From a virus (Duplodnaviria > Heunggongvirae > Uroviricota > Caudoviricetes): DNA of 19,631 bases. Under the pieces are notes generated by a model that saw only the letters and a program-made list of their open reading frames with translations, was not told where the DNA came from and searched no databases. Location: the IMG/VR virus record IMGVR_UViG_2541047837_000004; one strand, given 5' to 3'. Positions 1 to 18,100 of the stretch are shown one piece after another. The first letter of the stretch is position 1; the number at the start of each line of letters is the position of its first letter. Both the position numbers and the translations under genes were made by a program.

Positions 1-318
1 ATGATGCAATCTGCGGGCATTGTCGTTAATGATGTTACTGTCACCTGGCGTAACGGGCACACAGCACTGCGCGATGCATCCTTCACAGTACCAAGTGGAT
101 CTATTGCCGCTCTGGTTGGGGTAAACGGTTCCGGAAAATCGACGTTGTTTAAAGCGATTATGGGATTTGTGCGTCTGACCAGCGGAAAGATATCTGTTCT
201 GGGTATTCCCACGCGACAGGCGCTACAGAAAAACCTGGTTGCCTACGTCCCTCAGTCAGAAGAGGTTGACTGGTCATTTCCTGTACTAGTGGAAGATGTG
301 GTGATGATGGGCCGCTAG
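1..318 (+). pseudogene. sitB: Mn/Fe ABC transporter ATP-binding protein SitB-like, 5' fragment (105 codons, then TAG)
   Basis: Translation begins [28 protein letters not shown] and contains Walker [10 protein letters not shown]; it stops after MMGR, whereas ABC ATPases of this family run to about 270 aa. Identity to SitB is from memory of the family. Confidence 0.65.
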
Positions 319-692
319 TCCACCAGCGCATGTGCCACACCATACTGAAATGCGAGACTGAAAAATTGCTGCGCCCACACATCCAGTCGGCTCCCCTCCA
401 TGTCGATATTTTCTGCATATTCCCTGATTTTTTCCGGCGTTTCCTCACTCAATACTGTCGGCTCTGCAAATATGCGCCCAATATTTTGTTTGATGCTTTC
501 TTCATACACAGGAAGTAGCGTAGCCACAGACAGGCGTTTTTTATAAGCGTCTTCATCTTCATTAGGCCATTTGGGGAGATAATTTTCCCCCTGCCTGCGC
601 ATTTCAAGCGTACCGCCCATCAATGCGTCGTTAATATCCCACGCCTCCAGCATATCGTTATAGTCGAGGTTGGGTGTTGATATATCAGCCAT
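315..692 (-). pseudogene. phage head-module protein, putative portal, N-terminal fragment (125 aa)
   Basis: ATG lies 2 nt after the terminase large subunit stop, the usual portal position. The ORF ends at TAG 317-315, overlapping the sitB TAG within CTAG. Portal identity is inferred from position only. Confidence 0.3.
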
Positions 693-4978: not shown

Positions 4979-5115
4979 ACAGCCTTGCTTTATGAATAAA
5001 ACGCACCCCAGCAGCCAGTGCTACTGGGGACTGAGGTGTTGCTGGTAAAGTTAGGTATTGGATCAATGAGTGAGTCAACATAATATTAAACTCACAATTA
5101 TAAATCAGCCATATA

Positions 5116-8135: not shown

Positions 8136-8531
8136 CTAACCTCGCATGTCAAAGCCAGATTTCTGAAAATCTCTGTAGACTTCCGGATTGTTGAAGGCCG
8201 GAAATTTGGCTTTATGAGCTGCGGACTTTATCGCTTCGCAATAGGCTTTATCACCGTTACTGGTAGATATTTTTAACGCCGTGCCATCCTGAGAGAATTC
8301 CATATGCAACCTGCATTTTTTCCCTTTCCAGTTATGCGGCTCATCAAGTTTGGCATTAATTGCAGCTCTGATTCCCCGCGCTTGCGCCCCCCATTCATCC
8401 TGATCATCCCAGCGTCCTGAACTGCAACTACCTGTAGCAGTAGTTTTGTGGCAATCTGAAGGGTGTAAAGGTGTGCATCCCGTAACAAAACCGACCCAAA
8501 AAGTCAACATAACGATTTTCTTTAATCCCAC
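8136..8531 (-). CDS. lipoprotein with TolA domain III-like C-terminal domain
   Basis: GTG start with GAGGAG Shine-Dalgarno; signal peptide MGLKKIVMLTFWVGFVTGC with lipobox and Thr at +2. C-terminus KKCRLHMEFSQDGTALKISTSNGDKAYCEAIKSAAHKAKFPAFNNPEVYRDFQ parallels the TolA C-terminal domain as recalled. Confidence 0.65.
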   Translation of the reverse strand: MGLKKIVMLTFWVGFVTGCTPLHPSDCHKTTATGSCSSGRWDDQDEWGAQARGIRAAINAKLDEPHNWKGKKCRLHMEFSQDGTALKISTSNGDKAYCEAIKSAAHKAKFPAFNNPEVYRDFQKSGFDMRG

Positions 8532-8681: not shown

Positions 8682-9110
8682 TCAGGGTTTAAAATCCAGC
8701 ACCCCATTTTGAAATACTTTATATACTTCCGGCGAAGGGGGGGCAGGTATATCAGCATTCTTTATCGCATTCATCGCTTCACGACATAAATCGAGGTCTC
8801 CACTTTCTCTTTTAACCTCCAGTAGAAGGCCATTCGGGGCCATATGCATTCTCAGTGTACACTCTTTTCCTGAATACTTACTCGCATCCCCGAACTGTTT
8901 TTCGATGGCGCTCTTGATTTGATGGGCATACAGACGGATATCCTCACTAACATCAGAAGTACGTTCAGATGAACTCACATACTGTGTCTCTATTGCTTTA
9001 TCGGAGTAATATGATGTACGGTCATGATAATTTGTCGATACAGCATCAGTGCACCCGATAATAATCCCACTAATAATCAACGTAAGAATTGATGCGCTAC
9101 GAAAACCCAT
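8682..9110 (-). CDS. lipoprotein with TolA domain III-like C-terminal domain
   Basis: Signal peptide with lipobox IIGC and Thr at +2. C-terminal 80 aa (QIKSAIEKQFGDASKYSGKECTLRMHMAPNGLLLEVKRESGDLDLCREAMNAIKNADIPAPPSPEVYKVFQNGVLDFKP) align residue for residue with recalled E. coli TolA C-terminus (...GKTCTLRIKLAPDGMLLDIKPEGGDPALCQAA...PPSQAVYEVFKNAPLDFKP). Confidence 0.75.
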   Translation of the reverse strand: MGFRSASILTLIISGIIIGCTDAVSTNYHDRTSYYSDKAIETQYVSSSERTSDVSEDIRLYAHQIKSAIEKQFGDASKYSGKECTLRMHMAPNGLLLEVKRESGDLDLCREAMNAIKNADIPAPPSPEVYKVFQNGVLDFKP

Positions 9111-9139
9111 TTTTCCTCACATATGTCATATAGTAAAGG

Positions 9140-9169
9140 ATTATATATACCGTTGTTTTGGACGCTCAA
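9140..9169 (-). promoter_or_regulatory. sigma70-like promoter for lipoprotein gene 2
   Basis: Minus strand reads TTGAGC, 18-nt spacer, TATAAT, about 25 nt upstream of the ATG at 9110, which has a GAGGAAAA Shine-Dalgarno. Confidence 0.35.
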
Positions 9170-9698
9170 ACAGCGAATCAGATCAAATAAAACGCACATT
9201 TGTTAACATTTACACAAAGTCTGCGTGGGATATTCTGAAAGAATATCCATAATGTGGAGAGAATCTATTGAAGTGCATGGTGCCGGGTGCCTCCCGGTGA
9301 ACAAAATGTTCGTGATACCTGTCGGCGACAGAAAAGGTTAATGGTATCACCCCACCGCACAGGGGGATTCACCATGCAGGAGTTTTCTTAGCAAACTCAC
9401 TGCGCGCCCGGCAACTCCCAACCACATAAAATGCGGAGTTTGTGGCATTTATGCATATAACTAGCAGGAATTATCTTAAAAAACTGATGTCGATCCGGAT
9501 TAAAAAGAAGCAGGTCATCATCAGATGACTGGAAAAAAGGAAAACAAAAAATACTCATCATACAGTTTTGATTGCAGGGATGAGCCTGCTATGCACAATA
9601 TGCAGAATATAAGCAAGATAAAAATATGCAGGCATATTATTTCGGATTTTGTTATTAACACAACCTTTTTAATAATCATTTGGCATACAATAAACCAG

Positions 9699-9727
9699 CC
9701 CAAAAAGAACCGCCTAAACAGGCGGTT
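9699..9727 (-). terminator. intrinsic terminator (second of a tandem pair)
   Basis: Stem AACCGCC-taaaca-GGCGGTT at 9708-9727, followed on the minus strand by CUUUUUGGG. Confidence 0.45.
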
Positions 9728-10047
9728 GGTCAATACAAAGGATGCTTCGTCTTTATTATAGTAATCTGAGGCGTCGGGTGTCTTGTATCAGACAACATAT
9801 TGTCCCGCTAAACAGCGAATTACAAACCACCCTGCAATGATCTCTCATCTCATTTTATATGAGTTGACGACATCAGGATAACGCATCATCAGCCCCTGCC
9901 AAGAAATATCAAAACTCCCGCCAGCAATGTGTTATCACAATATTGTAAAAAAAACACAGCACCGAAACTATAACTGGTCTCTGTTATAATTTGGAGCAGA
10001 AAGACCAGTTGCCCAATTAGCAGCATTCTCCCCTGCTTTCCTGACGT

Positions 10048-10075
10048 AAAAAAACCGCATTAAGCGGTTTTTTTA
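10048..10075. terminator. bidirectional intrinsic terminator
   Basis: AAAAAAACCGC-attaa-GCGGTTTTTTT: GC stem flanked by an A-run and a T-run, so it is functional on either strand. It lies about 80 nt downstream of the 153-aa ORF stop on the minus strand. Confidence 0.6.
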
Positions 10076-10154
10076 CGATGTCCATGTCTGCAATCCGCCT
10101 CGCGATACAGCTTTGCGAAGCATAGCAAAATTGAAGCAGTTTATACGTAAGAAA

Positions 10155-14244: not shown

Positions 14245-16845
14245 ATGAGCACAAAACCACTCTTCCTGTTACGGAAAGCGAAAAAATCATCCGGTGAACC
14301 TGACGTCGTCCTGTGGGCAAGCAACGATTTTGAATCGACCTGTGCCACTCTGGACTACCTGATCGTTAAGTCAGGTAAAAAACTGAGCAGCTATTTTAAA
14401 GCTGTTGCCACGAATTTTCCTGTCGTTAATGACCTGCCCGCTGAAGGTGAGATCGATTTTACCTGAAGTGAACGCTATCAACTCAGCAAAGACTCCATGA
14501 CATGGGAACTAAAACCGGGAGCAGCACCAGACAACGCTCACTATCAAGGCAATACCAACGTCAACGGCGAAGACATGACTGAGATTGAGGAGAATATGCT
14601 ACTCCCAATTTCTGGCCAGGAACTGCCCATTCGTTGGCTTGCTCAACACGGCAGCGAAAAACCGGTAACGCACGTTTCACGCGACGGACTCCAGGCATTA
14701 CACATTGCTCGGGCTGAAGAACTACCGGCTGTTACTGCCCTGGCTGTTTCCCACAAAACCAGCCTGCTCGACCCGCTGGAAATTCGCGAACTCCACAAAC
14801 TGGTTCGTGACACTGACAAAGTTTTCCCTAATCCTGGTAATTCAAACCTGGGACTGATAACTGCTTTTTTCGAAGCATACCTGAACGCTGACTACACCGA
14901 TCGAGGACTGCTGACAAAAGAGTGGATGAAGGGTAATCGTGTTTCACACATCACTCGCACGGCTTCCGGTGCTAATGCTGGCGGCGGAAACCTCACCGAT
15001 CGCGGCGAAGGTTTCGTACACGATCTGACGTCACTGGCGCGCGACGTAGCCACTGGCGTACTGGCCCGTTCAATGGATCTGGACATCTATAACCTTCATC
15101 CGGCACACGCTAAACGCATTGAGGAAATTATCGCTGAAAATAAACCGCCCTTTTCTGTTTTCCGCGACAAATTCATCACCATGCCTGGCGGGCTGGATTA
15201 TTCCCGCGCCATCGTGGTTGCGTCCGTAAAAGAAGCACCAATTGGGATCGAGGTCATCCCCGCGCACGTCACTGAATATCTGAACAAAGTACTGACTGAA
15301 ACCGATCATGCCAACCCTGATCCGGAAATCGTGGATATTGCCTGCGGTCGCTCCTCTGCCCCGATGCCGCAGCGAGTAACAGAAGAAGGAAAACAGGATG
15401 ATGAAGAAAAACCGCAACCATCTGGAACAACGGCAGTTGAACAGGGAGAGGCTGAAACAATGGAACCGGACGCAACTGAACATCATCAGGACACGCAGCC
15501 GCTGGATGCTCAGTCACAGGTAAATTCTGTTGATGCGAAATATCAGGAACTGCGGGCAGAACTCCATGAAGCCCGGAAAAACATTCCATCAAAAAATCCT
15601 GTCGATGCCGATAAATTGCTTGCTGCATCACGTGGTGAATTTGTTGACGGAATTAGCGACCCGAACGATCCGAAATGGGTAAAGGGGATCCAGACTCGCG
15701 ATTGTGTGTACCAGAACCAGCCAGAAACGGAAAAAACCAGCCCAGATATGAATCAACCTGAGCCAGTAGTGCAACAGGAACCGGAAATAGCCTGCAATGC
15801 CTGCGGCCAGACTGGCGGGGATAACTGCCCTGACTGTGGTGCGGTGATGGGCGACGCAACATACCAGGAAACATTCGATGAAGAGAGTCAGGTTGAAGCT
15901 AAGGAAAATGATCCGGAGGAAATGGAAGGCGCTGAACATCCGCACAATGAGAATGCTGGCAGCGATCCGCATCGCGATTGCAGTGATGAAACTGGCGAAG
16001 TCGCAGATCCCGTAATCGTAGAAGACATAGAGCCAGGTATTTATTACGGAATTTCGAATGAGAATTACCACGCGGGTCCCGGTATCAGTAAGTCTCAGCT
16101 CGATGACATTGCTGATACTCCGGCACTATATTTGTGGCGTAAAAATGCCCCCGTGGACACCACAAAGACAAAAACGCTCGATTTAGGAACTGCTTTCCAC
16201 TGCCGGGTACTTGAACCGGAAGAATTCAGTAACCGCTTTATCGTAGCACCTGAATTTAACCGCCGTACAAACGCCGGAAAAGAAGAAGAGAAAGCGTTTC
16301 TGATGGAATGCGCAAGCACAGGAAAAACGGTTATCACTGCGGAAGAAGGCCGGAAAATTGAACTCATGTATCAAAGCGTTATGGCTTTGCCGCTGGGGCA
16401 ATGGCTTGTTGAAAGCGCCGGACACGCTGAATCATCAATTTACTGGGAAGATCCTGAAACAGGAATTTTGTGTCGGTGCCGTCCGGACAAAATTATCCCT
16501 GAATTTCACTGGATCATGGACGTGAAAACTACGGCGGATATTCAACGATTCAAAACCGCTTATTACGACTACCGCTATCACGTTCAGGATGCATTCTACA
16601 GTGACGGTTATGAAGCACAGTTTGGAGTGCAGCCAACTTTCGTTTTTCTGGTTGCCAGCACAACTATTGAATGCGGACGTTATCCGGTTGAAATTTTCAT
16701 GATGGGCGAAGAAGCAAAACTGGCAGGTCAACAGGAATATCACCGCAATCTGCGAACCCTGTCTGACTGCCTGAATACCGATGAATGGCCAGCTATTAAG
16801 ACATTATCACTGCCCCGCTGGGCTAAGGAATATGCAAATGACTAA
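14245..16845 (+). pseudogene. recE: exodeoxyribonuclease VIII RecE, interrupted by in-frame TGA at 14464-14466 (codon 74)
   Basis: ORFs 14245-14466 and 14497-16845 are in the same frame with a single stop between them. The span is 867 codons, matching the 866-aa RecE length recalled for E. coli K-12. Confidence 0.8.
14497..16845 (+). CDS. recE: RecE C-terminal ORF (782 aa) retaining the exonuclease domain
   Basis: Longest intact ORF downstream of the nonsense codon. The C-terminal region ([22 protein letters not shown] ... DVKTT ...) is the nuclease domain. Stop overlaps the recT ATG. Confidence 0.6.
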
Positions 16846-17647
16846 GCAACCACCAATCGCAAAAGCCGATCTGCAAAAAACTCAGGGAAACCGTGCACCA
16901 GCAGCAGTTAAAAATAGCGACGTGATTAGTTTTATTAACCAGCCATCAATGAAAGAGCAACTGGCAGCAGCTCTTCCACGCCATATGACGGCTGAACGTA
17001 TGATCCGTATCGCCACCACAGAAATTCGTAAAGTTCCGGCGTTAGGAAACTGTGACACTATGAGTTTTGTCAGTGCGATCGTACAGTGTTCACAGCTCGG
17101 ACTTGAGCCAGGTAGCGCCCTCGGTCATGCATATTTACTGCCTTTTGGTAATAAAAACGAAAAGAGCGGTAAAAAGAACGTTCAGCTAATCATTGGCTAT
17201 CGCGGCATGATTGATCTGGCTCGCCGTTCTGGTCAAATCGCCAGCCTGTCAGCCCGTGTTGTCCGTGAAGGTGACGAGTTTAGCTTCGAATTTGGCCTTG
17301 ATGAAAAGTTAATACACCGCCCGGGAGAAAACGAAGATGCCCCGGTTACCCACGTCTATGCTGTCGCAAGACTGAAAGACGGAGGTACTCAGTTTGAAGT
17401 TATGACGCGCAAACAGATTGAGCTGGTGCGCAGCCTGAGTAAAGCTGGTAATAACGGGCCGTGGGTAACTCACTGGGAAGAAATGGCAAAGAAAACGGCT
17501 ATTCGTCGCCTGTTCAAATATCTGCCCGTATCAATTGAGATCCAGCGTGCAGTATCAATGGATGAAAAGGAACCACTGACAATCGATCCTGCAGATTCCT
17601 CTGTATTAACCGGGGAATACAGTGTAATCGATAATTCAGAGGAATAA
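16838..17647 (+). CDS. recT: recombinase RecT (single-strand annealing protein)
   Basis: 269 aa from [18 protein letters not shown]; matches recalled RecT. The ORF track start at 16781 is an upstream in-frame ATG inside recE. Confidence 0.95.
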
Positions 17648-17703: not shown

Positions 17704-17898
17704 ATGAGATATGACAATGTTAAACCATGTCCATTTTGTGGTTGTCCATCAGTAACGGTGAAAGCCATTTCAGGATATTACCGAGCGAAGTGTAACGGAT
17801 GCGAATCCCGAACCGGTTATGGTGGAAGTGAAAAAGAAGCACTCGAAAGATGGAATAAACGAACCACTGGAAATAATAATGGAGGTGTTCATGTATAA
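17704..17898 (+). CDS. ralR: restriction alleviation protein RalR (Lar)
   Basis: 64 aa MRYDNVKPCPFCGCPSVTVKAISGYYRAKCNGCESRTGYGGSEKEALERWNKR, with four-Cys zinc-ribbon-like spacing. Confidence 0.85.
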   Translation: MRYDNVKPCPFCGCPSVTVKAISGYYRAKCNGCESRTGYGGSEKEALERWNKRTTGNNNGGVHV

Positions 17899-18100
17899 AA
17901 TTACCGCCACTATTGAAAAGGAAGGTGGCACTCCTACTAACTGGACAAGATATTCAAAATCTAAACTAACGAAATCAGAATGCGAAAAAATGCTCTCAGG
18001 TAAAAAAGAAGCAGGCGTTTCCAGAGAGCAGAAAGTAAAACTGATAAATTTTAATTGCGAGAAACTTCAGTCCTCGAGAATTGCATTGTATTCAAATTAA
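17891..18100 (+). CDS. ydaC: Rac prophage protein YdaC
   Basis: 69 aa from MYKITATIEKEGGTPTNWTRYSK; GGAGG Shine-Dalgarno; overlaps the ralR stop by 8 nt. Confidence 0.8.
   Translation: MYKITATIEKEGGTPTNWTRYSKSKLTKSECEKMLSGKKEAGVSREQKVKLINFNCEKLQSSRIALYSN

Follow-up and report, generated by a model that had tools for sequence, protein, structure and literature searches.

The stretch of DNA analysed here, hereafter the window, is 19,631 bases long and is colinear with positions 789517-809147 of the Escherichia coli LR-64-2 record (NZ_AP027595.1), from which it departs by two substitutions, at positions 5032 and 14466. The former is intergenic, with T in the window and G in LR-64-2; the latter falls in recE. 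In the LR-64-2 record, the region begins with a truncated sitB and a truncated portal gene followed by the terminase genes, trkG, a lysis cassette, ydaT/ydaS/racR and sieB, and continues with kilR, ydaE, racC, recE, recT, ralR, rcbA, xisR and intR. This Rac remnant counts five pseudogenes, and replication, head and tail modules are absent from the annotation of the colinear region. The window is a decayed 19.6-kb Rac prophage remnant of E. coli.

The recE frame of the window is nearly identical to K-12 recE across its full length and displays the racC-recE-recT synteny in which recT overlaps the recE stop. When the frame is repaired at its premature stop, the protein carries the two domains of Rac RecE, the Exonuc_VIII N-terminal domain (PF06630) at residues 2-178 and the PD-(D/E)XK nuclease domain (PF12684) at residues 615-850. 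The gene, its length and its neighbours (racC-recE-recT-ralR-rcbA-xisR-intR) are those of recE from the Rac prophage of E. coli K-12 (b1350; WP_000105143.1 / WP_000105139.1), and the differences reside in codon 74, which is TGG in K-12 and TGA in the window, and in residue 455 of the MG1655 protein. The features of the locus are collected in Table 1.

Table 1. Features of the interrupted recE locus, in window coordinates.
Feature	Position	Strand	Basis and remarks
recE (exodeoxyribonuclease VIII) frame, pseudogene here	14245..16845	+	867 codons, 1 internal stop; 1 nt from intact WP_000105139.1 alleles
N-terminal ORF, 73 aa; first 72 of the 203 positions of the Exonuc_VIII N-terminal domain	14245..14466	+	ORF list and Pfam; exact peptide named 'exodeoxyribonuclease 8, partial' on 62 contigs
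Former Dcm site CCTGG, now CCTGA	14462..14466	+	Dcm-site map of recE
Premature TGA, codon 74, ancestral TGG (Trp)	14464..14466	+	changed base 14466, G to A
+1-frame mini-ORF: GTG, 9 codons and TGA (14498-14500); stop overlaps ATG85 as ATGA	14468..14500	+	sequence; possible termination-reinitiation relay
Downstream ORF, 782 aa, from Met85; possible restart product	14497..16845	+	ORF list; Pfam: PF06630 (remainder) and PF12684
ATG118 (14596-14598) with GAGGAG upstream, spacing 3 nt; putative alternative start	14587..14598	+	-9.3 kcal/mol, 1st percentile of gene positions
C-terminal PD-(D/E)XK nuclease domain, RecE residues 615-850, intact	16087..16794	+	PF12684, E = 4e-28; identical to intact alleles
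recT	16838..17647	+	start overlaps recE stop by 8 nt (16838-16845); LR-64-2 annotation and sequence

Direct reading of positions 14461-14472 gives ACC TGA AGT GAA. Translation of the whole frame encounters one stop besides the natural one at its end, namely at codon 74, so that 73 codons are open before the interruption and 793 after it. The ORF list divides recE at the same place, into 14245-14466 (73 aa) and 14497-16845 (782 aa). The position of the stop and the resulting split are therefore as described in a previous sequence-only reading of this DNA, which had also taken the 867 codons to represent the 866-aa RecE plus its stop and the lesion to be a single change from TGG to TGA.

Comparison with intact alleles bears out both of these latter proposals. 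The 2,601-nt recE frame was matched in 1,623 complete E. coli genomes (coverage of at least 80%). In four genomes listed at 100.0%, RecE is annotated as an intact protein of 866 aa (WP_000105139.1), and base-by-base comparison with these four strains reveals one difference, at 14466, where the window has A and the strains have G (2,600 of 2,601 nt identical). Two differences separate the window from MG1655 (2,599 of 2,601 nt identical), the second being located at position 15608 and affecting residue 455, Ala in the RecE of the window and Asp in that of MG1655. The sequence-only reading had envisaged that reference alleles might also carry TGA and be annotated from a downstream start; the intact references read TGG and are annotated over the full 866 aa. 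A long open frame around one stop, one nucleotide away from annotated intact genes, denotes a disrupted gene and no chance pattern. The uninterrupted 866-codon ORF of a functional recE is lost through TGA at codon 74, and an in-frame stop that intact close homologues lack, in a frame otherwise preserved, is what NCBI PGAP designates as a pseudogene by internal stop. The recE of the window is a pseudogene through one nonsense SNP and should be annotated as one pseudogene, not as two genes.

The distribution of this allele was examined in complete genomes and in public assemblies. A 61-mer centred on 14466 has matches in 1,680 complete genomes, none of them at 100%; none of the 1,680 carries A at 14466, and codon 74 is TGG, rarely TAG, throughout. 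A 31-mer containing the A of 14466 had no match in IMG/VR. Scaffold KE700922.1 of assembly GCA_000459235.1 could be compared with the window over 15,387 bases; all of them agree, 5032T and 14466A among them. The TGA allele is thus already present in public data, and this identity identifies the window, on sequence grounds, as the Rac region of GCA_000459235.1 or of a clone thereof. A mutation planted in silico, or added later as an artefact, was considered and rejected because the public scaffold carries both private SNPs over the same bases. A sequencing or assembly error would require that the isolate has TGG and that A at 14466 was miscalled in the consensus. The privacy of the allele with respect to the complete genomes would fit such an error, as would the facts that the sole matching record, GCA_000459235.1, is probably the window's own source and that another lesion of codon 74, a 1-bp deletion described below, is probably an error itself. 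However, the change is a substitution and no homopolymer indel, the source scaffold is free of other anomalies in the 15.4 kb that were compared, the KE700922.1 contig is reported in two samples and an identical TGA was found independently in assembly GCA_001617095.1, making the change biologically plausible. The nature of the change, a substitution in a scaffold that is clean elsewhere, and the independent TGA render an error very unlikely.

Exact matches to the 73-aa peptide were retrieved from 121 index blocks and 62 contigs of public assemblies. In ten public loci encoding this peptide that were inspected, codon 74 is TAG in seven, TGA in two and affected by a 1-bp deletion in one. The two TGA loci belong to the source assembly GCA_000459235.1 and to GCA_001617095.1, whose recE haplotype has 20 differences from that of the window, including a 9-bp deletion, and whose prophage architecture is different. 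The assembly that carries the 1-bp deletion (locus L022) contains many split genes, and the deletion probably reflects an error of that assembly. Apart from the error-prone L022, all carriers have an unbroken downstream ORF, 782 aa long, or 779 aa in locus L021 where an in-frame 9-bp deletion occurred; this preservation could mean either that the mutations are recent or that the C-terminal part is kept by selection.

The frequency of TAG at codon 74 has a likely origin in DNA methylation. Dcm methylates the inner cytosine of its site and deamination of this base produces T:G mismatches in CTWGG/CCWGG (PMC2715241). In the CCTGG that overlaps codon 74, the bottom-strand 5-methylcytosine pairs with G14465, not with G14466, and the expected hotspot product is therefore TAG; the location of the codon within this site accounts for the recurrence of the amber allele. 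Further Dcm sites of recE where deamination gives an amber codon are found at Q125, Q150 and Q541. All ten nonsense truncations accessible by transition between codons 74 and 227 are present as exact peptides in public data, some of them maybe as contig-end partials. Among these ten sites, the exact truncation peptides of the three Dcm-type sites were encountered on 62, 32 and 27 contigs and those of the seven non-Dcm targets on 9, 17, 14, 11, 1, 25 and 11 (exact one-sided Mann-Whitney p = 0.008), in counts where contigs are not independent events and some short peptides may be partial sequences from contig ends. Of the 1,680 complete genomes, 5 have W74-TAG; they belong to two strain groups (EC12/15/18 and XH987/989), and PGAP labels their recE as a pseudogene with 'internal stop'. 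The 61-mer allele searches detected Q150-TAG in one complete genome and no full-length exact match for Q125-TAG among complete genomes, while the controls W87-TAG and W131-TAG, as well as the W74-TGA of the window, were found in none. These counts are consistent with a Dcm hotspot and, being small (0-5), speak for the direction only. The TAG alleles reside on recE haplotypes that differ from that of the window at 0-18 positions and are associated with three kinds of immunity region, a diversity which argues for several independent origins; other E. coli strains have, by this comparison, lost codon 74 independently.

It could be supposed that the mutation of the window is itself a product of this deamination hotspot. 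The change is a transition, G to A, inside the CCTGG that contains TGG74, and G14466A destroys this Dcm site; moreover, the Dcm-type stops are the most frequent truncations in public contigs (the others reach 1-25) and, in complete genomes, W74-TAG and Q150-TAG were recovered where each non-Dcm control was not. The mutated base is nevertheless the wrong one, as 14466 lies opposite the outer, unmethylated cytosine and the methylated inner cytosine lies opposite 14465. In addition, TGA accounts for about 2 of about 24 contigs read (2 of the 10 inspected loci), a share comparable to the per-path counts at non-Dcm Trp codons. Given the non-hotspot base and this share, the TGA of the window behaves like a background transition. 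Dcm deamination was accordingly rejected as its cause, for which we give it scant probability, and retained for the TAG alleles. The recE pseudogenes with TAG at codon 74 (EC12/15/18, XH987/989 and many drafts) resemble that of the window by the codon affected, the split into 73 and 782 aa and the PGAP 'internal stop' label; they differ in carrying G14465A, the amber change expected from Dcm deamination, whereas the window carries G14466A, an opal change at the adjacent unmethylated position. Amber hotspots at Dcm sites were described in lacI (Coulondre et al. 1978; Lieb 1991; both as cited in PMC2715241), and the same mechanism is proposed here for the recurrent recE TAG at codons 74, 125 and 150 in CCWGG. 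These hotspots do not explain the TGA of the window, and the evidence for recE differs from that for lacI in consisting of database counts, not of mutation rates.

At the protein level, PF06630 is broken off by the premature stop at position 72 of its 203-position profile. The 782-aa ORF holds the whole nuclease domain (PF12684 at ORF residues 531-766), and the 8-nt overlap between the recT ATG at 16838 and the recE TAA at 16843-16845 is intact; the sequence-only reading had correctly noticed both features. The function of the N-terminal domain of RecE is unknown according to a review, which also reports that the nuclease domain alone (residues 564-866) genetically replaces RecE and that the full-length protein chiefly boosts linear-linear recombination (PMC11611040). 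A C-terminal fragment starting at aa 588 achieves with recT a recombination efficiency equal to that of lambda Red (PMC3945230). The earlier suggestion of nuclease activity in a possible restart product thus agrees with the literature as far as the activity of such a fragment is concerned and is less well served by the first candidate start, ATG85, which essentially lacks Shine-Dalgarno pairing. Expression is a further consideration. In MG1655, recET is normally completely repressed, and its activity requires sbcA mutations or capture by lambda (PMC3945230). The truncated RecE engineered for RecET recombineering (from aa 588 or 602) and sbcA-activated recE show that the loss of the N-terminal part is compatible with exonuclease activity and recombination alongside RecT; these constructs and alleles possess their own promoter and start codon, whereas the truncated product of the window would depend on inefficient restart in a silent operon. 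A literature search for truncated recE of the Rac prophage in connection with sbcA found no paper.

If the operon were derepressed, most ribosomes would release the 73-aa fragment at UGA74, and a proportion of approximately 1-2% or lower might decode this codon as Trp with tRNA-Trp. Since the original codon specified Trp, this readthrough would rebuild wild-type RecE. K-12 possesses a weak RF2 variant (Thr246); termination at UGA is usually more efficient in natural isolates, which for this reason probably read through less than K-12. In K-12 reporters, UGA decoding by Trp-tRNA-Trp in competition with RF2 reaches about 2% at 37 C, or about 4% when the temperature is 25 C (PMC10570021).

Another small fraction of ribosomes might restart at ATG85 or at ATG118 and produce an N-terminally shortened, nuclease-competent RecE. 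An in-frame start within a few tens of nucleotides does exist, as ATG85 (14497) is located 30 nt past the TGA, and the +1-frame mini-ORF terminating in ATGA on this codon is a possible termination-reinitiation relay. Anti-Shine-Dalgarno pairing at ATG85 amounts to -0.9 kcal/mol, essentially none, compared with -6.7 for the native recE start and -6.0 for recT. Pairing is strong at ATG118, a candidate alternative internal start, but the spacing of 3 nt is short; ATG560 (15922) displays a Shine-Dalgarno-like setting similar to that of ATG118. All these features are present in intact alleles too, which indicates that none of them evolved for restart.

Translation of recT might suffer as well. With little translation over approximately 2.4 kb of the mRNA, recT would become subject to Rho-dependent polarity, against which the physical overlap of the two genes is no protection because coupling requires ribosomes arriving at the overlap. 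Between about 14700 and 14830, the sense strand is rich in C (0.33-0.36) and poor in G (0.17-0.21), a composition that weakly fits Rho loading on untranslated RNA. Inside recE, promoter-like sites number 3 against 5.0 +/- 2.4 in shuffled sequences, and terminator-like sites 9 against 5.1 +/- 2.3, neither number standing clearly above its shuffled mean.

A rival reading takes the allele for a hypomorph and not a null, one that still supplies useful RecE activity, by reinitiation or by UGA-to-Trp readthrough, and is tolerated or even favoured. The anatomy of the locus is compatible with such a restart or readthrough hypomorph, considering the intact nuclease domain and recT overlap, the proximity of ATG85 and its mini-ORF, the pairing at ATG118, the insertion of the original residue by readthrough, the known function of truncated RecE with RecT and a downstream ORF unbroken in all carriers but L022. 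On the other hand, the two nearest starts are deficient in pairing or in spacing, the restart features are shared with intact alleles, natural isolates usually stop more efficiently at UGA than K-12, the operon is silent in a repressed prophage and recent mutations would in any case leave the downstream ORF unbroken. We consider a hypomorph unlikely.

Programmed recoding, in which UGA would specify selenocysteine or serve as a regulated readthrough site, has nothing in its favour beyond the codon being UGA. This codon is not conserved (0 of 1,680 complete genomes), orthologues having TGG or rarely TAG. No stable SECIS-like hairpin was found 3' of the UGA, the fold of 14464-14530 (67 nt) reaching -8 kcal/mol (z = +0.81 relative to shuffles), and no Rfam family matched the recE stop at gathering score. 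Selenocysteine and programmed readthrough were ruled out on these grounds, with a negligible residual probability.

The reading we retain is that a spontaneous, neutral G14466A mutation has, very probably, turned recE into a pseudogene within the silent and decaying Rac prophage of one E. coli lineage, represented by GCA_000459235.1. The G:C-to-A:T transition at 14466 converts Trp74 (TGG) into UGA, and the change is most likely selectively neutral in a heavily decayed, non-inducible Rac remnant where recET is normally repressed. As recET is repressed and the prophage defective, the phenotype in this strain is likely to be small or nil. Codon 74 could also be viewed as a selected, recurrent off-switch for full-length RecE, the loss of the N-terminal part being favoured, for instance, by a lower toxicity upon accidental Rac derepression, and restart or readthrough keeping a basal RecET, in which case the TGA of the window would be one more hit; we hold this to be highly improbable. 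Events of this kind are common and already known, and PGAP already treats the sister alleles as pseudogenes.

Under the neutral reading, the SNP carries little weight in itself and adds one more decay step to a cryptic prophage. An sbcA-type activation of Rac in this lineage would probably not give full-length RecE, the form reported to boost linear-linear recombination. Beyond this lineage, recE offers a natural read-out of amber hotspots at Dcm sites (codons 74, 125, 150 and 541) that can be quantified across large genome collections. Codon 74 itself, located in a Dcm site, has repeatedly become amber across E. coli, and the opal codon of the window is a neighbouring, non-hotspot change.

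Besides the premature stop at recE codon 74, the window differs from the colinear genome of E. coli strain LR-64-2 (NZ_AP027595.1) by a single second substitution, T instead of G at position 5032, which changes GGAGG to TGAGG on the plus strand. The T is common to the window and the public assembly GCA_000459235.1, and was found in none of the 1,507 complete genomes matching the 61-mer around this position.

The recE gene carries three more Dcm sites, each CCAGG, at 14617, 14692 and 15865, where deamination of 5-methylcytosine would convert a CAG codon into amber (Q125, Q150 and Q541, respectively). The exact truncation peptides expected from Q125* and Q150* are encountered in 32 and 27 public contigs, and the Q150 TAG codon is present in one complete genome, that of strain CUPF12. 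At residue 455 (window position 15608), the window and its four closest strains encode Ala (GCC), whereas RecE of K-12 MG1655 has Asp (GAC). In one locus encoding the 73-aa RecE peptide, L022 (GCA_053109915.1, 10001-15383), recE is broken into three pieces, recT is shortened and the integrase gene is split. These disruptions suggest indel errors of long-read sequencing; the 1-bp deletion of this locus at codon 74 should therefore not be tallied as a natural allele.

A mini-ORF in the +1 frame begins 2 nt downstream of the premature stop and terminates on ATG85, the first in-frame ATG after that stop, in an ATGA overlap, an arrangement typical of classic translational coupling. It is probably fortuitous here, because intact recE alleles carry the mini-ORF as well.

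Features of the window discussed in the text
Feature	Position	Strand or frame	Remarks
truncated sitB	1-315		iron/manganese transporter
truncated portal-like gene	318-692		DUF4055
substitution	5032		intergenic, between trkG and the ynaK pseudogene
TolA C-terminal-domain ORFs (two, neighbouring)	8136-8531, 8682-9110	(-)	from annotation
STnc100 sRNA	9221-9407	(-)	Rfam match, 86.6 bits (gathering score 47)
mini-ORF	14468-14500	+1 frame	ten codons, GTG...TGA
RalA	17897-18075	(-)	full-length Rfam match, 225 bits

On the left, the Rac remnant ends in a junction between truncated sitB and the truncated portal-like gene (1-692). Neither the ydaU/V/W replication genes nor any head or tail gene is present in the prophage, whose other pseudogenes are ynaK, a tolA-like gene and DUF1133. 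The pair of TolA-like ORFs, one of which the RefSeq record of LR-64-2 lists as a pseudogene, adjoins the lysis cassette and constitutes unusual prophage cargo. According to the same annotation, the STnc100 match sits within a 1.2-kb gene-free interval (8943-10154). RalA, the sRNA that serves as antitoxin to RalR in a type I toxin-antitoxin pair, is an already known feature and is intact in the window; it runs antisense across rcbA, with one end adjoining ralR.
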